DNA of 56,920 nucleotides, taken from the IMG/VR virus record IMGVR_UViG_3300039159_000083, positions 1-56,920 of that record. One strand, given 5' to 3'. Source of the DNA: a virus. Taxonomy: Duplodnaviria > Caudoviricetes. The notes below the pieces were generated by a model. It saw only the letters and a list, made by a program, of their open reading frames with translations. It did no database searches and was not told the origin of the DNA. Positions within the stretch are counted from its first letter, which is position 1, and every line of letters starts with the position of its first letter. Position numbers and translations under genes: made by a program. Positions 772 through 38,251 of this stretch are shown here, one piece after another.

Positions 772-967
772 GCTAGCTAAGGATTCTAACAAGGTGTTTG
801 ACTAGTCGGATCTGTTTCGACTAGTCAAACGCTCCGTCAAACTACTTGACCAATGGTCTGTGTAGTTGTCAGCTTCTAATCCTTTAGCTACTGCTAGCTA
901 AGGATTCTGATGAGGCCTTTGAATGGTCGGGACAGATCCGACCGTTCAAACGCTCCGTCGGATCTAG
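772..967 (+). ncRNA. Candidate structured RNA/ssDNA element (four hairpins, repeat-derived)
   Basis: Hairpins at 796-830, 840-867, 878-906 and 918-950. A 16-bp direct repeat GCTAGCTAAGGATTCT at 772-787 and 893-908. Core-stem mismatches are G-U on the plus strand. Transcription is not demonstrated. Confidence 0.45.
835..899. repeat. 65-bp direct repeat of 441-505 (inside the nuclease CDS)
   Basis: 62/65 identical; differences at 461/855, 473/867 and 475/869. Confidence 0.95.
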
Positions 968-2247: not shown

Positions 2248-5200
2248 TTATCTCTTCTTCTTATATAAAGTATTAATAGCTCTACCTATATTTAACTTGG
2301 TATTACTTGAATTAGGTATGTTCTTTAGGTTACCTGATTTAATACTAGCTATTTGTACTTGAGTACCAAGGGTAAGCCCAGAACTAATCATATCTAAGTA
2401 ACAGGCATAGACAGCGTTAACTACTGCATCTGCCATATCTTTACCTGCTAGATTATGAGTTACCTGACCATTAGGTTTAACTATAATTTCACTAAGTTCA
2501 GTTATAAGAGTAGATATATATACTGAATCCCTGGGTAGTTCTAATAAACCTTGGGATAAAAGATCTCTAAATGTAGTGTAATAAGTTAATTGTTGAACTC
2601 TAGCAGTAGACATCTGCTCAGTAGAGAAACCTAATGTATGTAACTTCTGTATAGAAGATTCAGAGTTAAAGGAGTCAAAGGTAATCTTAGAGGCGTGTCT
2701 AGCTTTACCTAATTCTATAATGCAATCCTCTACATTTTGATAGGAGACATATCTCTGATGACCTGTAGAATCTAAATAGGGTTTCCATCTGATTAGAGCA
2801 TCAAGTGATATACCCCATCTATCATCTGCCATCTTAATGGCATGACACATAGCAAGAGCAGTGGCATCTCTTTTAACTGAGAAGTCTACATGTATGAATG
2901 ACCGGATAGAAGTATTCTTTTCTAATCTAGTTATATCTACTTCTACATATCTCTTAGTCTCAGAAGATATTTCTAAGTTCTTATCTCTCTCTAATGTATC
3001 TATACAAGAGAAACCAGTACAAGCTTTATCACATAGCTGGGCACTTATAAAACCAGTGGATAACTTCCTTCTAATACCTTCATACTCTAACTCAGCCTTT
3101 ACCCTATTCTTAATATAATCAGAGTTACAATTGGCCCTTGATACAGCCTCTAGTTTGTTTAAGTCCCAAGTACGAAGACGGAAGAAGACAGTATCAGGGT
3201 CAGCTTGAGTATCATTAATAAGTCTCTCCATAGGGTCACCAGTACACCATGCAGAGGAGATGGCTACCTTATGTCCTAGAGCACCAAATCTATTGACACC
3301 AGCCCCTACGTTAGAGAAGAGATGATCACCAGCACTTGTAATGGTTCCATCATCTTCTATCTTATTCTCAAAGCGGGCAAACTCATCTAATATCATTGCC
3401 TTAAGGGTATAACCAACTAAAGCCGGTGAGTTAGTATGTTTGGCATAGATGGCAACATTCTTAGCAGGACACTTAATAGTCTCTGCTAGTATCTCTATCT
3501 TCCCAGAGTCTTGCATTGCCTTAAAGAAATAAGAATCTGCAGCATAACCCCTTATCTTAGCAAAGAGAGTATCTTTAACTTGCTCTAAGGTCTGTGCTAT
3601 TACAAAGAGTGCTATAGGGTCATTAGGTAGTAATTTGTAGTGACGGGCAGGATTAGGTAGGGTAATGAGGGAATAGAACTCATATAAGGCTATAATGGCG
3701 GCTATCGTCGAATTGTGAGAAATGATATCATTACCAATAATGTTGGTACCCTTAACCTCTAAAGCTATAGTGGAGGCCGTACCTTCTAAAGTAAGTGATG
3801 CTATAGGTTCCCATAAGATGGGGGCATCAATGAAACAGGAAAGGTCTATAATACCTAACTTGTGGGCGGCATCTTTGGCTTTAGCCTTTGATAATCTATC
3901 CTTCCTGATATAACTATTAGGGGTAAGGCCTAAAGAGGTCCAGCTAACCTTAGATTTATATTTAGCCTTCTCAATAAGATTCAGGGCCCCTTTAGGTAGA
4001 AGTTCTATTCTTTGGTCTCTATCTAATCTCTTACTGATTATTTCTATAGCTTGATTTAAAGCTTCGCCTTTACTATATATACCTATATCTTGAGAGAACT
4101 TAAGAATATCCCTTTTAGTTCTAATAGCTAGTTCCCAAGCATCAAAGTTTTTACTATTGCATGTAGCTATCTTATGGAAGGTGTGTGAGGTAATACCAAA
4201 TTTAAGTAGCTCTCTTTGTATGTCATCAATAAAGTCTTTAGAGGCTAGGGTTATGCCTAGTGTCACCCTAGTGGGAGTACTAGAACAATATCCATCACAA
4301 GAGAACAAACGTGATAGGAAGCTGGCCACCTCTTCTTTAGGGGCTTCTTTAATACATGTTGGTATTCTTTTATTCTTAGATAACTTATCCCACTCTCCTA
4401 AACTCTTTATCCAATTCATTAGAGGATTAGGCGTACCCCCAGTCATCCCAGCTTGGTGGGATATACGATATTGTATCTTGGTGCCACCTATGAGCTTTAT
4501 TCTGTAGCTAGGGAACTCTCTATTTAATATGTCCTGTATATCTTCTATTACCATAGACTGCTCATTGGTAAAAGTGATAGATTCACCTCTTACACTACCA
4601 TCTCCCCATATATAACCTAGGAGGGCAGCTTTATCTAAACCAATGGACTTTCCACCAAATAACTCTTGGGATTTAGCTACAGCTACATAATCCCCTACTT
4701 CTAAGTCTTTAACTTCCACCCATCTAGGTACATCCCAATCATCTCTCCAAACTAGGTAAGGATGTTCCGCAGTAACTTTATCAGCTCTCCCACTCTTAGT
4801 TCTAAGTTCATATACTTCTTTAACGCCATTAAACTCAGTAGCTATGTCGTAGCTAATATACTTTTCCCAGGTAGCAGGGTTATAAGTAAATATTCCTATT
4901 CTTTCTCCTCTAGATAATCTCTGATGTAAATCTCCATAGGAAAGGCTACCTACCGTAGTAGTAATAAAAGAGTCTTCTGAACAGCACTTACTGTTATGCG
5001 AGATTATGGAGTTCCCTATAATACTAGTATCTGTAACTTCTAATCCTACTATTCTTTTCATACCTACTTCGATGAGTTCTTCTACCCCATCCCATCTAAT
5101 ATTAGATTGGGCTAAAGTTTTAAGTTCCTCATCCTTTAGATTAGTAGCATAAGTAATAACCTTTGACTTAGAGGGAGCATATTGCTTTCTAAGTCTGGAA

Positions 5201-6588
5201 TGATCTGTGTTAATCCCTCCAGTAACTTGCCTATTACTAAATTTAAGAGTCTCTTGCTTATCGTTTATCCTATCCCAAACTGAGCAGGGTAGGGTGTCTA
5301 CCTTACATTGAGACCTTATATCTGGGTTAGATGTGATTGCTTCTATAGCCTTCAACTTATCTTCTTTGGAGAAGATGCCAATCTGATGAATGAAGTTAGA
5401 AAGGGATTGTTTATCACTAATAGTTAAGGCCCAGGCATCAAATAGCTTACCATTACACTTGGATGCTTTGTAGTTTACTCTACTAGCTATGCCAAACTTT
5501 ACCAGCTCTCTTTGTATATCTTCTATAAACTCTTTGGAGGCTAAGCATATACCAATAATACATTTAGGATTAGGATGTTTGTCTATTAGTTTACCTACAC
5601 ACGCATATCCATCACAGGCAAATAGTCTTGATAAGAAGGTAGCTATCTCTTCTTTAGGGGCTTGTTTAATACAAGGAGGTATCCTTTTATGAATAGCTAG
5701 TTTACCATGCTCTCCTATTTCTCTTAGCCAACATAAGAGAGGATTACCTTGACCAGGTTTAGCAGATAATGTGTAGCCATACTTTGCTGCCCCTTTTCTT
5801 ATACGTATAGTCGGAAAGGATTCATCTAATATAGATTGTATCTCTTCTATTATTCTAGAGTCCATATTAGTAAACCTAATAGAGGAGCGCTGAGATAAGC
5901 CTCCATCTCCTAATAGATAGCCTAATAGTTTAGCCTTAGCTACTCCTATAGAAGTAGTACCAAATAAGGGAAGGTTATCTAGTACTGCTATACGATCCCC
6001 TACTACTAAATCCTTTAGTTCTACCCATTCTGGTAGCCCCTTTCTCCATATAAGATAAGGGTGGTCATAAGTGCACTCTTCTTCTTTACCCGCCGCAGTC
6101 TTTATTCTTATGGCAGGTTCCTCCCCTTTATCCCAAGTCTTTATGTCATAAGTAGTATAGGATTCCCACGTGTCTGGATTAAGAGTAGTAATTCCTATGG
6201 TTTCTCCTAATAACTTTCTATCTCTTAGTTCTCCATATGTAATAGTTCCTACTGTAGTTATTACATAAGAATCTTCAGAAGGGCATCCACCACGCCCTAC
6301 TTCTAGTATTAAATTCTTATAGCTTCTACCTTCTACCCAATTAGTTCTACCCTCATATTTCCATTGAGCTAATACATTCTTCTCTATATCATTTAGGTCT
6401 TCACCATACATGGTTTTGAGAAGTGCTGTCTGCTGAGGGAATAACTGGGCACTACCATTAAATACAATATCCTCAGCAAACTCTATTATAGATATGGAGT
6501 TATTCTGATTAGACCCTATACCAGCAGCAGCAGAAGTAATAAAACCATCAAAGAGGTTATCTAAGTTAGTGGTTTTCTTATTAACCAT
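2248..6588 (-). CDS. terL: Terminase large subunit containing two inteins (about 590 aa after splicing)
   Basis: After intein removal: LFPQQ adenine-binding motif, Walker A LILEVGRGGSKST, Walker B AMILDEFARF, and RNase H-like nuclease motifs FIHVDFSVKRDATALA, ITFDSFNS and GKDMADAV. Confidence 0.93.
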   Translation of the reverse strand: MVNKKTTNLDNLFDGFITSAAAGIGSNQNNSISIIEFAEDIVFNGSAQLFPQQTALLKTMYGEDLNDIEKNVLAQWKYEGRTNWVEGRSYKNLILEVGRGGCPSEDSYVITTVGTITYGELRDRKLLGETIGITTLNPDTWESYTTYDIKTWDKGEEPAIRIKTAAGKEEECTYDHPYLIWRKGLPEWVELKDLVVGDRIAVLDNLPLFGTTSIGVAKAKLLGYLLGDGGLSQRSSIRFTNMDSRIIEEIQSILDESFPTIRIRKGAAKYGYTLSAKPGQGNPLLCWLREIGEHGKLAIHKRIPPCIKQAPKEEIATFLSRLFACDGYACVGKLIDKHPNPKCIIGICLASKEFIEDIQRELVKFGIASRVNYKASKCNGKLFDAWALTISDKQSLSNFIHQIGIFSKEDKLKAIEAITSNPDIRSQCKVDTLPCSVWDRINDKQETLKFSNRQVTGGINTDHSRLRKQYAPSKSKVITYATNLKDEELKTLAQSNIRWDGVEELIEVGMKRIVGLEVTDTSIIGNSIISHNSKCCSEDSFITTTVGSLSYGDLHQRLSRGERIGIFTYNPATWEKYISYDIATEFNGVKEVYELRTKSGRADKVTAEHPYLVWRDDWDVPRWVEVKDLEVGDYVAVAKSQELFGGKSIGLDKAALLGYIWGDGSVRGESITFTNEQSMVIEDIQDILNREFPSYRIKLIGGTKIQYRISHQAGMTGGTPNPLMNWIKSLGEWDKLSKNKRIPTCIKEAPKEEVASFLSRLFSCDGYCSSTPTRVTLGITLASKDFIDDIQRELLKFGITSHTFHKIATCNSKNFDAWELAIRTKRDILKFSQDIGIYSKGEALNQAIEIISKRLDRDQRIELLPKGALNLIEKAKYKSKVSWTSLGLTPNSYIRKDRLSKAKAKDAAHKLGIIDLSCFIDAPILWEPIASLTLEGTASTIALEVKGTNIIGNDIISHNSTIAAIIALYEFYSLITLPNPARHYKLLPNDPIALFVIAQTLEQVKDTLFAKIRGYAADSYFFKAMQDSGKIEILAETIKCPAKNVAIYAKHTNSPALVGYTLKAMILDEFARFENKIEDDGTITSAGDHLFSNVGAGVNRFGALGHKVAISSAWCTGDPMERLINDTQADPDTVFFRLRTWDLNKLEAVSRANCNSDYIKNRVKAELEYEGIRRKLSTGFISAQLCDKACTGFSCIDTLERDKNLEISSETKRYVEVDITRLEKNTSIRSFIHVDFSVKRDATALAMCHAIKMADDRWGISLDALIRWKPYLDSTGHQRYVSYQNVEDCIIELGKARHASKITFDSFNSESSIQKLHTLGFSTEQMSTARVQQLTYYTTFRDLLSQGLLELPRDSVYISTLITELSEIIVKPNGQVTHNLAGKDMADAVVNAVYACYLDMISSGLTLGTQVQIASIKSGNLKNIPNSSNTKLNIGRAINTLYKKKR
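3712..4986 (-). mobile_element. Intein 2 with LAGLIDADG homing endonuclease (425 aa)
   Basis: Starts CCSED, block B VTAEHPYL, LLGYIWGDGS and FLSRLFSCDGY motifs, ends IISHN followed by Ser+1. Confidence 0.93.
4993..6285 (-). mobile_element. Intein 1 with LAGLIDADG homing endonuclease (431 aa)
   Basis: Starts CPSED, block B CTYDHPYL, LLGYLLGDGG and FLSRLFACDGY motifs, ends IISHN followed by Ser+1. Confidence 0.93.
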
Positions 6589-22660: not shown

Positions 22661-23893
22661 ATGCTTGATACAGTAGGCAAAAGGCAAGGTTATCTATCTG
22701 GCTCTATAGATGGAGATGGATATAGCATAAACTACGAATATGATAAGCCAGATAGGAGCAATACAGAGATAGTTAAAAGGGTGGGATTTACTAATACTGA
22801 CTTATCAATATTAGAAGCTTTTAAGTCCTGTCTTAATTCCTTGAACGTTAGCTATGGAATGAGTTCACAAAAGACCGTGACAAATAAGGATAGCTATAAC
22901 ATCTCCTGTTCTAATAAAGAAGGGCTATGTGTGTTATCTAGTAATACATACTTAAAGGTTTTATATAAGGAAGAGGCCCTAACTAAAACTTTAGAGTCTG
23001 TTTATCTTCATGGAGATAAACCTATAAAGTTATGTAGCTTTGAAGATATGGACTTCAAATTAGGCTGGCTGGCGGCTATGTTAGATTCTGAGGGTTGTAT
23101 CCTTTATAGCAAAACTAACTACTCAATAAGGATATGTAATACGGACTTAGAAGTTATTGAGTATTGTCAACAGATATTAGAAAGCTTGCATATAGCCTAT
23201 AAAACTTACTCTCATAATAAACAGAATAAAGATGGAATAGTTAGAAAGCCTACACATCAAGTTTGTATATTACAAGCCAAACATATATTAAGGTTTAGTA
23301 GCTTAGTGCCTATCCAATCTGAAAGGAAGATAGAGAAACTAAAAGATCTATGTACTTATTTAAGTAGAGATAAATATAGATTTTCCACAGAAGAACTTGC
23401 TAGGATGCATGTAGAAGAAGGTCTTAGCTTCTCAGAGATAGGTAGAAGATTAGGTGTTGGCGAGTGTAGGTCAGGAGGTTTGGCTAAGCAGGTAAGGGAA
23501 GGAGGGTATGTAGTCAACACTATAAAATCTAGAGGGCCTTATGCAGCTTTGGATGTTAATGACTCTCAGCTTAAGGAGGTCTATGATAGACTTCTGAAGG
23601 GTGAATCAATGAGCCAGATACTTATCTCTATGGGCTTTAAAGCTAATAGAGGTACTACTATATATAAACTATTAGACTCTAAAGGTTATAAAGTAGATAG
23701 CGGTCATGGAAAACTATATAAATTATTAGATACATTGGGAGCAGAAGAGATTATAAAAAGGTTGGACTTAGGAGTTACAGCTTCTAGAATACTTAGAGAT
23801 GCTGGAATTGAAACTAGGTCTACAACTTCTTTGTTTAACTATCTAGAAAAAGCTGGTCATGATGTAACTAAGTATAGAAGAAAGAAGAACTAA
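22661..23893 (+). CDS. Free-standing double-motif LAGLIDADG homing endonuclease with C-terminal HTH repeats
   Basis: GYLSGSIDGDG...FTNTD and GWLAAMLDSEGC...ICNTD; C-terminal GLSFSEIGRRLGV HTH. Confidence 0.85.
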   Translation: MLDTVGKRQGYLSGSIDGDGYSINYEYDKPDRSNTEIVKRVGFTNTDLSILEAFKSCLNSLNVSYGMSSQKTVTNKDSYNISCSNKEGLCVLSSNTYLKVLYKEEALTKTLESVYLHGDKPIKLCSFEDMDFKLGWLAAMLDSEGCILYSKTNYSIRICNTDLEVIEYCQQILESLHIAYKTYSHNKQNKDGIVRKPTHQVCILQAKHILRFSSLVPIQSERKIEKLKDLCTYLSRDKYRFSTEELARMHVEEGLSFSEIGRRLGVGECRSGGLAKQVREGGYVVNTIKSRGPYAALDVNDSQLKEVYDRLLKGESMSQILISMGFKANRGTTIYKLLDSKGYKVDSGHGKLYKLLDTLGAEEIIKRLDLGVTASRILRDAGIETRSTTSLFNYLEKAGHDVTKYRRKKN

Positions 23894-23908
23894 TTATATT
23901 AGATAACT

Positions 23909-23934
23909 GGGGGCACTATTTCAAGTGTCTTTTT
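23909..23934 (+). terminator. Possible weak intrinsic terminator after the endonuclease gene
   Basis: GGGGGCACT-ATTTCA-AGTGTCTTTTT, a stem with G-U pairs. Confidence 0.45.
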
Positions 23935-23949
23935 ATATAAGGAGTACAA

Positions 23950-24327
23950 ATGGTAAAAATAGATAACTTAAGAAATACTAAGATAGGAATCAGAGTTGAT
24001 AGAAGTTCTGCCCTTGGTAATCCTTTTGATCTAGTTAATACTAGAGATGTGGTTATGAGACTTAGAGTATGCAATGCTTATCAAGAATACTTTGACTTAA
24101 TAGAAAAGGGGGCCGAACCTATTAATATAGTAAAGCTTCTTTGTACTAAGTACTTTGTCAGTATTCATTCCACATGGAAAGCACCAAATAGAAGAATGTT
24201 CTTGGAAGCTCTTAGTGATATAGGAGCTAATGACACTCTTCTGTGCTGGTGCACTCCAGAGTTGTGTCATGCCTTAACTATAAAGGAATGGAAGGATTCT
24301 AATAAGTCCTTAGAAACAGATTCCTAA
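23950..24327 (+). CDS. DUF4326-family protein
   Basis: VDRSSALGNPF ... LLCWCTPELCHALTI signature. AAGGAG RBS at 23939-23944. Confidence 0.8.
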   Translation: MVKIDNLRNTKIGIRVDRSSALGNPFDLVNTRDVVMRLRVCNAYQEYFDLIEKGAEPINIVKLLCTKYFVSIHSTWKAPNRRMFLEALSDIGANDTLLCWCTPELCHALTIKEWKDSNKSLETDS

Positions 24328-31202: not shown

Positions 31203-31755
31203 TCATTAGTTCTATCTTCTGTTTCTTATTTACTAATCTATCTATGGGTGTAGAGTAAGCAACCCAATGAAGTATACCTTGATCTTCTACATAAGAAGAA
31301 GGATAACTAATTAAATTAGGGTTATGTTCTTCTATTAAGGAGACATCAGTATGTAACCCTAGTATTCTAATAGAGGAGGCTAGATAGTAATCAGGTTCGA
31401 TTAGACAAGAAATATATAAATGAGTAGGGCTAGGTAAATACATGCCCTTCTCTAAAGTTATATCTGTTAAATCTCTAATCACATGCCATTGCTTATTTCT
31501 AAATAGGAACTCACCACAAGGAGAGATAAGAGCCGGTAAACACTCATATAACCTAACTATAGATATAAGTTCTGTCACCTCTGTAAGAGAGGAGGAGGGA
31601 TTAGGAGGATTAGTATCATTGATGTTAGTATCAAATACATCTAACCATGCAGAGTCCTTAGATAAGGACATATACTTATTAGAAGGGTCTCTAACAAAGG
31701 ATAGAATCCTATTAGCCTTATTAGATAAAGTAAGTGAATTATGTATGATAGACAT
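31192..31755 (-). CDS. Baseplate wedge protein (small, gp8-like position)
   Basis: YMSLSKDSAW...PPNP motif; lies directly upstream of the DUF4815 gene, as in other large myoviruses. Confidence 0.65.
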   Translation of the reverse strand: MSIIHNSLTLSNKANRILSFVRDPSNKYMSLSKDSAWLDVFDTNINDTNPPNPSSSLTEVTELISIVRLYECLPALISPCGEFLFRNKQWHVIRDLTDITLEKGMYLPSPTHLYISCLIEPDYYLASSIRILGLHTDVSLIEEHNPNLISYPSSYVEDQGILHWVAYSTPIDRLVNKKQKIELMIDL

Positions 31756-32864
31756 TAACTATTTATACTCTCCATTATTTCCATAGCTGTAATACCTGAG
31801 GATAGTATTGAGGCTTGTCTAGGCCCATCATATCTAAGAGATAGAATACCTGTAAAGTATATATTACTATTTGGGGACTTAAATCCTTTTATTAATAGAG
31901 GAAAGTTTTTATCACTAGGAAGCCTTTCTACATTATTAAACATAGGACTGCTATTTAAAGAAGGTGTGGTGCCAGTACAGATAACAATGTAATCCACTTC
32001 TTCAACTATAGGTTCCATTTCTCTAGTTGAGGTAGGATTAATTATGTCTACATCAGATAGCTGATTAGATACCTCTTCTGTAATAGAAGGTTGCCAAGCC
32101 TTTACCTGTTTCAAATAACTTTCTTGGAGTGAGTTATCTCCATGGAAAGATCTATAAAAAGATCCTAAAGCACTTCTTGGTCCCCAGTCCTGATAAACAG
32201 GTGAGGGATAACGAGTTATCTTATGTTCTTTACTAATAGCCCAATGTACCTGGTTAGTCAAAGATAAATGAGCAACATACTCAGCACTTGCTTGACCAGA
32301 ACCTACAACTAAAATAGTCTTCCCTTGTACAGCAGTTCTTAGACATTCCGCTCTACTGATTATCTTAGAATAAAGATGAGTCTTATTTATCCATACAGGC
32401 ACCTTAGATAAAGAGTTAGAACCTGTGGCAATAATTACTTCATCTACTCTTAAGATATCCCTATCATCTAATCGGATCCAACCTTCTCCCATATCAATAG
32501 CATTCTTAGGTATATGAATTACACCTCTAGATATCAACTTATCAAAAGTATGTTCTAAATAAGAAAGAAACTCAGTTCTATTTACAGAGCAAGGACATTC
32601 TTCTGCTTCTTGTTGAGTAACATAAGAATAGGGAGTTCCCAAATAATTATCTAATCTCCATTCATCATAACTAGAATCTAAGAAGGAAACTAAATCAAAG
32701 GAGACAGGACTTCTCATGATAATGTCTGGAATTATATTAGGGTGTTTCCATGCAGATAGAGGTGTCCTATCTATAAGATATACCTTATTACCCTCTCTGA
32801 TAGCACATATAGCTATGGATAAGGCTCTGGGGCCTGACCCTATTATTCCTATAACACTCTTCAT
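31755..32864 (-). CDS. FAD/NAD(P)H-dependent oxidoreductase, class B flavin monooxygenase (Lys/Orn N-hydroxylase-like)
   Basis: FAD motif IGIIGSGPRAL, W...MRSP, VIIATG, NADPH motif LVVGSGQASAE, ICTG and IYFTG. Confidence 0.8.
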   Translation of the reverse strand: MKSVIGIIGSGPRALSIAICAIREGNKVYLIDRTPLSAWKHPNIIPDIIMRSPVSFDLVSFLDSSYDEWRLDNYLGTPYSYVTQQEAEECPCSVNRTEFLSYLEHTFDKLISRGVIHIPKNAIDMGEGWIRLDDRDILRVDEVIIATGSNSLSKVPVWINKTHLYSKIISRAECLRTAVQGKTILVVGSGQASAEYVAHLSLTNQVHWAISKEHKITRYPSPVYQDWGPRSALGSFYRSFHGDNSLQESYLKQVKAWQPSITEEVSNQLSDVDIINPTSTREMEPIVEEVDYIVICTGTTPSLNSSPMFNNVERLPSDKNFPLLIKGFKSPNSNIYFTGILSLRYDGPRQASILSSGITAMEIMESINS

Positions 32865-36356: not shown

Positions 36357-37427
36357 TTATACCACTCTTATGGAAATATCTAAAGTACCCATATCGCTAA
36401 TTAAAGAGCTGGTAGGAAAGATAGGTAGAGCAGGACTTAATACTTTTACTTTATTAACCCCAAGCACCTTTCTAGCAGCATTATTAATATCGGAAGGATC
36501 TACAGTATCATCTAAACCTAGGTTAGAAAAGTAGTTAGATAATGATTCTCTAATAGAGGCAGAGATAGTAGAGGCATAAGAAGAGGAGACTACTATTTCT
36601 AAAGATACGTCTATAGGTTTAGTTCTTATAGGTCTGACTAGAAAAGCAGTACCTATGGGTTTGATTTCTCTTATAAGATTAGTAATTACTTTAATAGATT
36701 CACTATCAGTAATATCTACAAATACTGAGAAGTAACCCGTGACTGGTTGATGCTCCTTAATATAGACTCTACTAATAAATGGGAGCTTCCTTACTTCTTC
36801 TCTAATATAAGAAAGAGTACCTTTCTGAGTTAGATTACCTGAAAAGGTAGCCTTAATCCTATTCCTAAAATCATCATCTGATTCTATAGAAGAGCCATTA
36901 GAAAGAGAGCCTATAGCTACTCTACTTATTGGGTCTCTATATTTACCTATAGTAAAGGTATGAGAAGGAAAGAGATTACTATATAGAACAGACCCTTGAC
37001 TTAAGTTATAAGCTTCGCCAGTAGTAAGGGCCTCTATAACTATAGGAGTTTCTATAGCAGCAGGTAAAGATATAGTATTAGATATCTTAAATTGTAGTAA
37101 CTGGTCTGAGGATTGCAGAATAGTGCCCGTAGGAAGATTAGTACTAGGCCCTTTACAAAGACATGTACCTATAGCATATGTTCCTCTTAATCTAGATATA
37201 CCAAAGTCTCTAGCCTTATCATCTAAACGGGAACCCTTTGCAGTAGATATAAAAGAGCTATTTATTATTTCTTCTATCCTAGTGTCTTGTTCTGCTATGA
37301 CAGTTGATACAGCTCTAAACAAGATATATAAATTACTAAAATTAGAAAACTTAGCCATAGGAGAACCTAAGGTATCCAAGCTTTTCCTTATGGACTCTAT
37401 GATATATTGGATAGTTCTAGATTGCAT
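36357..37427 (-). CDS. Baseplate J-like wedge protein
   Basis: FISTAKGSRLDDKARDFGISR..G..A.G, ALTTGEAYN, ESDDDFRNRI and KGT. Confidence 0.92.
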   Translation of the reverse strand: MQSRTIQYIIESIRKSLDTLGSPMAKFSNFSNLYILFRAVSTVIAEQDTRIEEIINSSFISTAKGSRLDDKARDFGISRLRGTYAIGTCLCKGPSTNLPTGTILQSSDQLLQFKISNTISLPAAIETPIVIEALTTGEAYNLSQGSVLYSNLFPSHTFTIGKYRDPISRVAIGSLSNGSSIESDDDFRNRIKATFSGNLTQKGTLSYIREEVRKLPFISRVYIKEHQPVTGYFSVFVDITDSESIKVITNLIREIKPIGTAFLVRPIRTKPIDVSLEIVVSSSYASTISASIRESLSNYFSNLGLDDTVDPSDINNAARKVLGVNKVKVLSPALPIFPTSSLISDMGTLDISIRVV

Positions 37428-37866
37428 GGGTCTCTCCTATTACTAAGTTCTCTACAATATCTTCTCCATCTACTGAATAGTTAATAAGAACATTTACCGT
37501 ACTAGAAGAAGTATCTCCATCTGGCACTGCTACTGTAATAGAATTAACTTGTATATTATTGTCATCTACATAAGAAGTAGCTTCTTTAACATTGGCGTAA
37601 GCATCACTTATCCATTGATAAGTAAGGGGGTCAGATAATTGATTATAAAGTTTATCCCCATAAGAACTATCTAAATGAACTATTCCGCCTCTTTCAATAG
37701 CCCATTTAGCTATCCATTTAGGTGGAGTAACCACAGATCTTCTAAGAAGATTAGTAGAACTAGCTGGAGCATCTTCAAGAATAATGTCATAAGTATTACC
37801 TTGTTCTCCTAGACCAGTCTTAATGATGGCTATATCTTCGTTATATAAACTAATATCTACACTCAT
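37417..37866 (-). CDS. gp25/GPW-like sheath-initiator baseplate protein
   Basis: 149 aa, HLDSSYGDKLYNQL motif, directly upstream of baseplate J. Confidence 0.65.
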   Translation of the reverse strand: MSVDISLYNEDIAIIKTGLGEQGNTYDIILEDAPASSTNLLRRSVVTPPKWIAKWAIERGGIVHLDSSYGDKLYNQLSDPLTYQWISDAYANVKEATSYVDDNNIQVNSITVAVPDGDTSSSTVNVLINYSVDGEDIVENLVIGETHAI

Positions 37867-37879
37867 GTATCCCCTCCCC

Positions 37880-38251
37880 TTAACTCATATTTATATGGCT
37901 ATATATAGAGTAAGGTAAACCAATAATAATCTTATTAGTAGGCCTCAATACTCCTATAGTTAATTGACCTGACTTATCAGAAGGTATCGTAGATAATCTC
38001 AATGTATAAAAACCTAGCTCTAATTGATTTGATTGATAGAGAAATAAAGCCCCTGTTCTTGATTGGGTAGAGGTTATCTCCCATATCTTTATTTCACTAT
38101 TACTACAATTAATAATATTCATGGCAGGGTTCTTAAGAGAATAAATTATCTCAAGTTTGAGCAACTCATCCTCTTTACTATAAGAACTATTAAAAGGAGC
38201 ATATAAAGCTATTCCTTTATCTATAATTTGGGGTGGGTCAATTATATTCAT
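37880..38251 (-). CDS. Hypothetical protein
   Basis: 123-aa ORF in the operon. Confidence 0.55.
   Translation of the reverse strand: MNIIDPPQIIDKGIALYAPFNSSYSKEDELLKLEIIYSLKNPAMNIINCSNSEIKIWEITSTQSRTGALFLYQSNQLELGFYTLRLSTIPSDKSGQLTIGVLRPTNKIIIGLPYSIYSHINMS

Follow-up and report, generated by a model that had tools for sequence, protein, structure and literature searches.

Introduction

The origin of replication of phage lambda lies in the linker-coding part of gene O, and oriL of phage SPP1 lies in gene 38; the lambda iterons within one gene share one sequence and are bound as duplex DNA. Quasi-palindrome correction is an established mutational process. In Nostoc, small dispersed repeats (SDRs), reportedly described by Elhai et al. 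2008 (Genome Res), are said to measure 21-27 nt, to be nested by insertion and to occur in many copies per genome. Furthermore, the Rickettsia palindromic elements (RPEs) and other palindromes like the repetitive extragenic palindromes (REPs) are hairpin-forming sequences found inside open reading frames (ORFs), and the CGTC type of REP has an unpaired CGTC tag (GTAG in others), a stem of 8-9 bp, a loop of 4-5 nt and a CCA-like tail (PMC3733652). In the present study, we analysed a stretch of 56,920 nucleotides from a virus of the Caudoviricetes (IMG/VR record IMGVR_UViG_3300039159_000083), hereafter the window, in which positions 772 to 967 hold two hairpins, B and C, upstream of a minus-strand gene with a predicted nuclease fold. 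An initial annotation had read the pair as a kissing-loop-like RNA or single-stranded DNA element. We report that a hairpin-bearing linker segment of the adjacent gene has been partly duplicated in tandem as non-coding DNA, that B and C in this duplicate are paralogues flipped relative to each other, and that the linker hairpin is conserved with covariation among homologues of that gene.

Results

The adjacent gene starts at 644 and runs out of the window on the minus strand (ORF 644->3). A further 122 codons or so stand in a neighbouring contig, which overlaps the window start by 148 nt, and the product of about 336 residues consists of an N-terminal domain, a variable linker and a C-terminal part with a predicted PD-(D/E)xK nuclease fold. 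In the protein alignment the linker lies between the conserved motifs DYxxNW and ESLxGK, is very variable in length and sequence, and occupies the very spot at which B and C stand in the window's copies of this segment. In all of the first six genomic loci, between one and three hairpins are formed by the linker DNA, each built as (TT)GAC(G)-stem, a mostly A-rich loop of about 7 nt, and stem'-(C)GTCA.

For the covariation analysis, 19 distinct full-length genes from Nostocales prophages and this phage were used (the duplicates L012-L018 and L032 were dropped; L numbers denote loci), and 48 nt upstream of and including the ESL codons were cut out and aligned by MAFFT, blind to structure (alignment A4). 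A hairpin at the same place, with a stem of about 9-13 bp and a loop of about 7 nt, was found in 19/19 genes, at 38-66% protein identity. In the 11-bp helix, 78.0% of the cells were paired, compared with 59.4+-2.2% in shuffled alignments (0/500 as high) and 29.7-40.3% when the partners were slid by 1-3 columns. Cells changed on both sides numbered 48 (shuffles 22.9, 0/500; slid partners 8-17), and the covariation score was 0.514 (shuffles 0.215, 0/500; slid partners 0.086-0.191). Double changes were present in nine of the 11 pairs and, independently, RNAalifold predicted the inner five pairs with compensatory changes in all of them. By alignment shuffles, slides and RNAalifold, the stems of the family hairpin covary across the 19 genes. 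The outer pairs (ACG/CGT) are conserved in sequence, whereas the inner pairs vary freely and yet stay complementary, which speaks for structure and not for a simple duplex operator.

Of the 19 genes, 11 have a linker whose folding energy reached z <= -2 for one strand or for both, a level not reached in three N-terminal-only paralogues; in L008 the fold has decayed (z +0.23/-0.85). The sense strand folded better in 10 genes and the antisense strand in nine. A covariance model built from the family hairpin alignment was run on 148.9 kb of loci, where all matches with E < 1e-3 lay in the linker, including additional, untrained hairpins at L009 6193-6240 and L010 4385-4430; the 19 best matches are the model's own training sequences. 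It gave no match in the three N-terminal-only paralogues, in four C-terminal-only loci or in the neighbouring contig L004. Rfam matched only transfer RNAs (tRNAs) in nine homologous loci, and in the homologues no convincing covariation supported a long-range pairing between the AKGL and the ESLA codons, which stand on either side of the hairpin.

The DNA holding B and C is a copy of this coding segment (Table 1). A direct repeat of 67 nt (772-838 and 893-959, 78% identity) recurs at a spacing of 121, and a search of the window with 772-967 recovered a third copy, in which 441-508 is 94% identical to 835-902 (E 2.8e-25). The identical 16-mer noticed in the initial annotation before B (772-787) and before C (893-908) was confirmed and recurs at 402-417 with two mismatches; three matches at <=2 mismatches compare with 0.20 expected, and 0/100 shuffles reached three. 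The 121-nt unit and the truncated second unit are an out-of-frame duplicate of codons ~46-82 of ORF 644->3. In the alignment the coding copy has a 24-column gap precisely at the position of B and C, and the minus-strand reading of copy 2 gives the segment LAVAKGLEA.DYTD.WSSSLT…ESLA around an eight-codon insert that holds a stop inside B. The unit of 121 nt is not a multiple of three, and copies 2 and 3 are out of frame. Successive units join at AGCT(A/G)G microhomology (manual reading), ORF 894-1358 takes its last 22 codons from copy 3, read in a different frame, and the 127-nt spacer between copy 2 and the nuclease start codon is unique.

B stands inside an older hairpin of the same family. 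In the window's coding copy the family hairpin is degenerate (~415-447, 7/10 pairs by manual count). The covariance model, for which this copy is a training sequence, matched it at 405-452 with 48.7 bits, copy 2 at 775-846 on the minus strand with 25.8 bits (E 4.8e-5) and copy 3 weakly at 896-928 with 17.9 bits. The model treats B as a 29-nt loop insertion, so that B is nested in the loop of the ancestral hairpin. The outer arm that lies 5' of each hairpin on the plus strand no longer has the CpG of its CGTC, and manual reading gives TGTT in copy 2 and CATC in copy 3 in gene sense. A relative about 91% identical, known from the short contigs of DNA run X1, includes a contig over 435-667 with a B-like loose end: past the coding flank at 435, 20 letters match the apex and right arm of B at 14/20 in fixed register (manual count). 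On this match, the close relative carries a B-like nested hairpin inside its coding copy, and the presence of the hairpin is polymorphic. An extra copy of the linker segment was found in none of 18 other full-length loci within the available flanks.

Direct reading of the sequence confirmed the positions and the 13-7-13 geometry of B and C. It also showed that their stems differ by two double (compensatory) and two single changes, that both non-Watson-Crick stem pairs are G-T on the plus strand, that the loops are complementary by six Watson-Crick pairs and one G-U, and that GTCGGATCT at 957-965 is complementary to 934-942. The apex of B contains this 9-mer too and that of C its reverse complement, and a contig of a relative begins at the CGTC of 957-965. 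In gene sense both hairpins have the form TTTGAC-N7-loop7-N7'-GTCAAA. The apex pattern GTCGG-N7-YCGAC is confined to B and C (four strand matches vs 0.15 expected; 0/100 shuffles reach four), and hairpins with >=12 paired bases (<=1 mismatch) number three in the 56.9-kb window, including B and C. The RNA fold of 760-975 gave -90.4 kcal/mol on the plus strand (z -7.0) and -73.4 kcal/mol on the minus strand (z -6.2), with 0/200 shuffles as good in either case. Of two more hairpins said to lie between B and C, one local hairpin (~840-866) is seen, while otherwise the 16-mer pairs with 877-889 in the fold. The CpG-rich patch is real: 772-967 holds 10 CpGs, an observed/expected ratio of 0.93 vs 0.175 in the whole window (327 CpGs), and the six CpG-richest 300-nt intervals of the whole sequence all lie inside 701-1250. 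As for the window at large, its dinucleotide ratios are 0.18 for CpG, 0.75 for TG and 0.86 for CA; since TG and CA are not raised, the CpG depletion is not a deamination pattern. AG (1.55), CT (1.46) and TA (1.28) are over-represented and AA and TT stand at 0.66, and the CpG observed/expected ratio in the related Microcystis phage MaMV-DC is 0.82.

Known RNA classes gave nothing at this place. Rfam at the gathering threshold returned no match in the whole window (phi29 pRNA, RNAI and CopA included), and at E <= 10 within 600-1100 it returned four chance-level rows of 10.6-18.6 bits, compared with gathering thresholds of 70-80. No tRNA or transfer-messenger RNA was found in the window, a phage DNA similarity search with 600-1400 gave no match, and promoter and terminator consensus scans around B and C showed nothing at the hairpins and no terminator in 300-1500; neither hairpin is followed by a T-run on either strand. 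The claim of a structured element stands in so far as the palindromes are real and non-random, have no Rfam match and belong to a hairpin type that covaries in relatives; as a self-standing element it does not, the twins being incomplete duplicates of a stretch of coding sequence in the adjacent gene.

Read on the minus strand, the 17-nt apex of C is identical to the apex of B at 15/17 positions, compared with 12/17 in direct orientation (manual count). C is therefore B with an inverted apex and, since a flipped apex is complementary by construction, so are the loops. The alternative that the initial annotation had itself named, a loop inverted between the stem arms, is upheld by this identity, and flips recur in L027, L005 and MaMV-DC. 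The stem of L027 is common to the first hairpin of L009 (L009#1) and to L028, but its loop is T-rich instead of purine-rich, and it is a single hairpin without a partner. In L005 the loop of the second hairpin (L005#2) is T-rich and the loops of its two linker hairpins are complementary (manual pairing), while L009, with two hairpins, and L010, with three, have same-sense A-rich loops that are unable to pair. Among homologues, loop complementarity is thus lacking in L009 and L010 and present in L005 and MaMV-DC. Neighbouring pairs have opposite loop orientation in 3/6 cases, which is chance level (manual count). A sigma-70-like antisense promoter reading through the hairpin was found in 2/19 genes and none near B or C, in a consensus scan that is a weak test.

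A structure model of the gene product, built on 11 sequences, was confident only over the C-terminal ~160 residues, with a mean pLDDT mostly of 83-95 in 10-residue blocks. The top Foldseek rows were NucS/EndoMS, AF1548, the R2 endonuclease and other PD-(D/E)xK enzymes, and the C-terminal part is accordingly predicted, at a best E of 1.1e-3, to have a PD-(D/E)xK nuclease fold. RRFDL...YELKK is conserved in the protein alignment and was read by us as the D...(D/E)xK motif. Pfam and NCBIfam gave no hits for the product, and in the ESM Atlas KilA-N/Bro-N-like neighbours, a lead only for the N-terminal domain, and Mrr-like neighbours scored <=0.84, below the 0.9 bar. The closest relatives are hypothetical proteins of Nostoc and Calothrix (38-47% identity), and the Nostocales homologues sit in prophage-like contexts with integrases, antirepressor, HTH genes, a ParM-like gene, a tail-collar gene and adjacent tRNA genes. 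The gene is sporadic: 19/389 Nostocaceae-family genomes match at E <= 1e-20, and in an order-wide sample 5/401 genomes match at E <= 1e-10, two of them full-length. Among 1.84 billion proteins there were 161 cluster representatives at E <= 1e-3, roughly 40 of them full-length, and a metagenome contig scan with the family alignment gave no confirmed locus. The tRNA genes L009 5611-5682 and L027 3154-3226 stand 0.3-0.7 kb upstream of prophage homologues in divergent orientation, and L010 1182-1250 adjoins an integrase.

The window phage is a myovirus, and its sheath protein is 50% identical to that of Microcoleus phage My-WqHQDG and 41% to that of the Ma-LMM01/MaMV-DC group; distant homologues of the nuclease gene are present in both (29% and 24% identity, respectively). 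In the cultured phage MaMV-DC, twin hairpins precede the homologue ORF48R (Table 1). Their stems differ by one compensated pair and their loops are exact reverse complements (6/6), and this palindrome type occurs at those two sites only in the 169-kb genome (control 0). Behind ORF48R stands the genome's longest hairpin, with a 32-bp stem, and 3/17 of the hairpins with stems >=12 bp in the 169 kb fall inside 1.45 kb at this gene. Exactly between the MaMV-DC twins lies an ORF of about 80 codons (L042 3586-3828 = 36923-37165), unannotated in MaMV-DC and annotated in MaMV-DH01 and MaMV-CH01. The My-WqHQDG homologue has an N-terminal extension of about 100 residues (L041 1715-2010) that bears a weak likeness to a second copy of a portion of the N-terminal domain (i-E 0.007; E 1.8).

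Table 1. Positions of the hairpins, repeat copies and associated genes; window coordinates unless MaMV-DC is named
Feature	Position	Strand	Remarks
Hairpin-owning gene, first 214 codons	3-644	-	C-terminal PD-(D/E)xK fold (predicted)
Repeat copy 1, original coding segment	402-508	-	inside ORF 644->3; without nested hairpin
Separate 10-bp hairpin	671-699	both	between repeat copy 2 and gene start; minus-strand 3' arm has GGAG, 14 nt before ATG
Repeat copy 2, full 121-nt unit with B	772-892	-	non-coding copy of codons ~46-82 of ORF 644->3
Decayed outer stem around B	788-796 and 830-838		remnant of ancestral hairpin
Hairpin B	797-829; arms 797-809/817-829, loop 810-816	both	13-7-13
Repeat copy 3, truncated 67-nt unit with C	893-959	-	cut off at 959
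Upstream ORF, 154 aa	894-1358	-	3' end runs into repeat copy 3
Outer-stem remnants around C	909-917 and 951-959
Hairpin C	918-950; arms 918-930/938-950, loop 931-937	both	13-7-13; apex (loop + closing pair) inverted relative to B
Third copy of 9-mer GTCGGATCT	957-965	+	outer breakpoint of repeat copy 3
MaMV-DC twin hairpins	36845-36876, 37193-37228		stems 13 and 15 bp, 6-nt loops; upstream of ORF48R
MaMV-DC homologue ORF48R	37269-38210

On the minus strand the local order is terL (2248-6588), a 300-aa ORF, the 154-aa ORF and the nuclease gene. For the 154-aa ORF no relatives were found, IMG/VR included; that it might be a diverged paralogue of the nuclease N-terminus was rejected, as it shows no similarity to that part or to the Microcoleus phage locus. 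Close to the nuclease gene, the hairpin at 671-699 could sequester a ribosome-binding site (GGAG in an arm near the start region), a 15-nt direct repeat at 631-664 with a spacing of 19 duplicates the start region, and, on manual reading, a 10-codon ORF starting at the first ATG (664) overlaps the actual start at 644. Downstream of the gene, in the neighbouring contig, L004 582-4148 is an ORF of >1189 aa with a weak phospholipase-D-like stretch; its resemblance to models of cardiolipin synthase and of DISARM DrmC falls far short of the cut-offs. Farther off in the window, terL (1446 codons) apparently carries two LAGLIDADG inteins (four LAGLIDADG_3 and two intein-splicing stretches). At 22661-24327 on the plus strand, a free-standing LAGLIDADG endonuclease-like ORF is followed by a DUF4326 ORF; these are the only plus-strand genes of >=110 codons besides the short ORF 31442-31786, which overlaps a minus-strand gene. 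A lysine/ornithine N-monooxygenase-like flavoprotein gene (31755-32864, minus strand) stands among the baseplate and tail-fibre genes.

Discussion

The twin hairpins are no new riboregulator; they led to a conserved, covarying stem-loop within the linker codons of a nuclease family not characterised so far, which is found in Nostocales prophages and in cyanophages like Ma-LMM01. New here is this covarying linker hairpin, absent from Rfam, while in-frame palindromes, cis sites in linker codons and quasi-palindromes are known kinds; our literature searches found no description of the linker hairpin or of the MaMV-DC twins. At this locus the tandem, nested and flipped stages of one palindrome are visible side by side, together with an apparent migration of the conserved intragenic hairpin to an upstream spacer. 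It offers a natural case for the old question of whether compensatory hairpin evolution reflects structural selection or self-repair of palindromes by template switching. In addition, it gives a warning for covariation-based RNA discovery, in that paralogous palindromes with flipped spacers mimic kissing loops.

We tentatively favour the possibility, which we hold to be somewhat less than an even chance, that B and C belong to a palindromic cis element which acts at the DNA level and goes with the nuclease gene, and that slippage duplicated this element and switching within the palindrome flipped it. The linker palindrome would act as DNA, as a hairpin- or cruciform-forming site coupled to the gene, and the putative site would probably be bound or processed by the encoded nuclease, which is predicted to be of a structure-specific type. 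Such palindromes may provoke slippage and template switching, and the tandem duplication at AGCT(A/G)G, the nesting and the flip of the loop could be explained in this manner. In the phage lineage the sites would have moved upstream of the gene, as in MaMV-DC, instead of staying inside it. We prefer a DNA-level role because position seems to matter little (inside the gene in prophages, upstream in two phages), and because loop orientation is free, folding shows no strand preference, the predicted nuclease is of a structure-specific type and the locus has a history of slippage, nesting and inversion.

Several observations weigh against this preference. A function at the DNA level is something that we infer from the sequences. 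The hairpins of MaMV-DC share no sequence with B and C, they stand 3' of two small genes, each about 28-30 nt after the stop codon, and extra unpaired half-site copies follow each of them, which fits protein-binding sites; for these reasons they may serve as operators or as stem-loops between cistrons, and the parallel may be coincidental. The Poisson estimate for the MaMV-DC hairpin cluster (~5e-4) was made post hoc. Three Fukuivirus isolates are nearly identical in this region and have the same orientation of loop and segment, with no active flipping seen among them, and the cumulative GC skew of MaMV-DC has no extremum at the hairpin locus. In My-WqHQDG the linker of the homologue is short and has no hairpin, and near the gene there are no twin hairpins, only a 9-bp hairpin in the N-terminal extension (L041 1825-1853). 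The Foldseek E-values are weak, with none <=0.001, and the N-terminal domain is poorly modelled. The contigs of two DNA runs gave none over 697-957, so that the tandem junction at 892/893 is known from this assembly alone. Furthermore, the helix of A4 has 26 A.C cells and 11 G.T cells on the sense strand, which a symmetric duplex or cruciform does not predict; since these cells are not independent and the folding energies split 10 to 9, no conclusion on the strand was drawn.

The competitor that we take most seriously, although we consider it unlikely, is a functionless, self-perpetuating quasi-palindrome, with B and C as recombination or slippage scars in a spacer and the loop flip as a template-switch product. 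Since template switching copies one arm onto the other, the "compensatory" changes would then be single mutational events. Much of what we observed suits such a history: the linker tolerates almost any peptide at many lengths; the tandem hairpins (L005, L009, L010), nested hairpin (window) and flipped hairpins (L027, L005#2, C) behave as unstable palindromes do; folding energy has no strand preference; L008 and the window's weak coding copy are decayed members; extra copies occur in the window and in none of the 18 other full-length loci; and My-WqHQDG does without a linker hairpin. It accounts less readily for the position, the ~7-nt loop and the stem length being kept in all 19 genes in spite of their protein divergence. 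The non-coding copies are moreover the most perfect hairpins and retain their CpGs despite the low genomic ratio, and twin hairpins that are unique in their genome also stand at the homologous gene in another phage lineage.

A role in messenger RNA appears quite unlikely to us. Hairpin control of phage nuclease genes is known from the T4-type homing endonucleases, and the hairpins might be stem-loops of a polycistronic minus-strand transcript, serving intercistronic processing, stability or translation insulation, or forming a translational operator of the nuclease, in the linker codons of prophages and in the 5' spacer of phages. All local genes are on the minus strand, so that B and C would be transcribed if the operon is; that strand also folds strongly, and the spacing of the MaMV-DC hairpins behind stop codons is in agreement. 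The excess of A.C over G.U cells on the sense strand is, however, the reverse of what is usual in functional RNA helices, loop orientation is not kept, there are no T-runs by B and C and no terminators around them, and the position differs between lineages, being 200 nt inside the coding sequence in one and in the 5' spacer in the other.

The kissing-loop element is now very unlikely. In this reading the loops of B and C, or those of sense and antisense copies, would pair with each other, as RNA or single-stranded DNA, to give a switch, dimerisation signal or antisense control. Loop complementarity is found in B and C, in the two hairpins of L005 and in the MaMV-DC twins, so that two phages have upstream twin hairpins with complementary loops; the plus (antisense) strand folds 17 kcal/mol better than the minus strand, and on the antisense strand the 26 cells become G.U and the 11 become A.C. 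All the same, complementarity is given by construction once the apex is inverted. The same-sense loops of L009 and L010, the single flipped hairpin of L027, the chance-level orientation of neighbouring pairs, the rarity of antisense promoters and the lack of Rfam hits also speak against it, and the functional reading of the initial annotation is not sustained.

About as little credit is due to a tiny mobile palindromic element, comparable to the SDRs of Nostoc, the REP/CGTC repeats or the RPEs of Rickettsia, that would have entered the loop of a previous copy without a change of frame. A net 24 nt were inserted, nested in a like hairpin; the insertion is present in the relative's coding copy and absent from the window's, both orientations occur, and RPEs are known as in-frame palindromic insertions (PMC3733652). 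Against mobility, the apex pattern was found in 0/389 Nostocaceae-family genomes (one control match), and a looser hairpin pattern in one site in five genomes vs one control site, with two unrelated sites in IMG/VR. The window has no other copy, each copy has a different stem, the geometry of the CGTC-REP is not reproduced, and no IS200/RAYT-type gene was found among the window ORFs.

It is highly improbable that B and C are inverted core sites of a lox/FRT/dif-like recombinase that could turn round 830-917 upstream of the nuclease gene. Such sites would suit the 13-7-13 geometry, the spacers that are reverse complements of each other, and the 13-6-13 and 15-6-15 inverted sites that flank a small ORF in MaMV-DC. 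On the other side, no recombinase was found in the window, which is a fragment of roughly one third of a genome, B and C have arms that differ at 3-4/13 positions, family hairpins within one gene have unrelated arms, the three Fukuivirus isolates share one orientation of the intervening segment, and no joints were seen in the contigs of the DNA runs, all of which lie outside the site. We give least credence to an assembly artefact in which strain variants of the linker were threaded in tandem: the element is <1 kb from the end of a contig that overlaps another by 148 nt, and allelic variation exists at exactly this hairpin (run X1), yet the outer-stem remnants are common to copies 2 and 3 and unlike copy 1, and the relative's contigs in run X1 break at the window's repeat boundaries. 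Two other candidates were rejected. A diversity-generating retroelement does not agree with the lack of a reverse transcriptase domain among the 37 window ORFs (Pfam) or with the differences between 441-508 and 835-902, which are not confined to adenine (manual reading); a type III toxin-antitoxin system (ToxIN-like) would have an array of short identical RNA repeats, a terminator and a ToxN-fold endoRNase, whereas there are only 1.5 units, taken from the gene's own codons, no terminator was found, and the protein has a predicted PD-(D/E)xK-like fold.

Returning to the DNA-level cis element, a wider proposal can be made, which we regard as doubtful. A cyanophage and prophage nuclease family, with a DNA-binding-like N-terminus and a PD-(D/E)xK domain, may carry its own structured DNA target in its linker codons. 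Partial duplication of the gene may have moved this target to twin flipped hairpins upstream in lytic phages, with the window as an intermediate stage, and gene and hairpin together might form an undescribed recombination, replication or homing module. If the nuclease does recognise the palindrome, this would be a new pair of protein and DNA structure in cyanophages.

Compared with known systems, the locus has a partial likeness to each. B and C resemble lox, FRT and dif sites in their 13-bp inverted arms, their asymmetric spacers in the 6-8-bp range and the reverse complementarity of these spacers; unlike them, they come with no recombinase found in the window, their arms are not conserved within one gene and no inversion was observed. 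With ColE1 RNAI/RNAII, R1 CopA/CopT and phi29 pRNA they share stem-loops whose loops of 6-7 nt are mutually complementary. RNAI/RNAII and CopA/CopT are, however, defined transcripts with conserved loop complementarity, whereas that of B and C comes from inversion and is absent in L009 and L010; the linker hairpins, moreover, have no Rfam match and no conserved antisense promoter.

As in the Rickettsia elements, a short in-frame hairpin stands in a tolerant coding region and adds a variable peptide, and several copies per ORF are possible. RPEs and REPs are multi-copy and dispersed elements with a consensus and an unpaired tag, in contrast to the linker hairpin, which has one locus per genome and its own stem in each gene. 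It also departs from the CGTC-REP in that its GACG/CGTC is paired at the foot of the stem, with stems of 9-13 bp and loops of about 7 nt. The Nostoc SDRs reportedly share with it Nostocales hosts, a similar size (24-nt net insertion vs 21-27 nt), nesting and a common hairpin with compensatory changes; unlike those multi-copy repeats, the B/C apex is in 0/389 Nostocaceae-family genomes.

Co-changing arms, perfect palindromes in unconstrained DNA, flipped spacers and nearby duplications recall what is said of quasi-palindrome correction and spacer inversion. That is a mutational process and not a functional class, and alone it leaves unexplained that the palindrome has kept to a single gene family and, in two lineages of phages, to a place beside the gene. 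As with an origin of the lambda O type, the codons for a variable linker between the domains of a putatively DNA-binding protein hold dyad sites, A-rich at the centre, in numbers that vary between relatives. The linker hairpin differs from the lambda O origin in that the hairpins of one gene have different stems, in which the inner positions vary yet stay complementary, and in that the protein has no homology to known initiators (no Pfam/NCBIfam family) and the GC skew of MaMV-DC gives no support.

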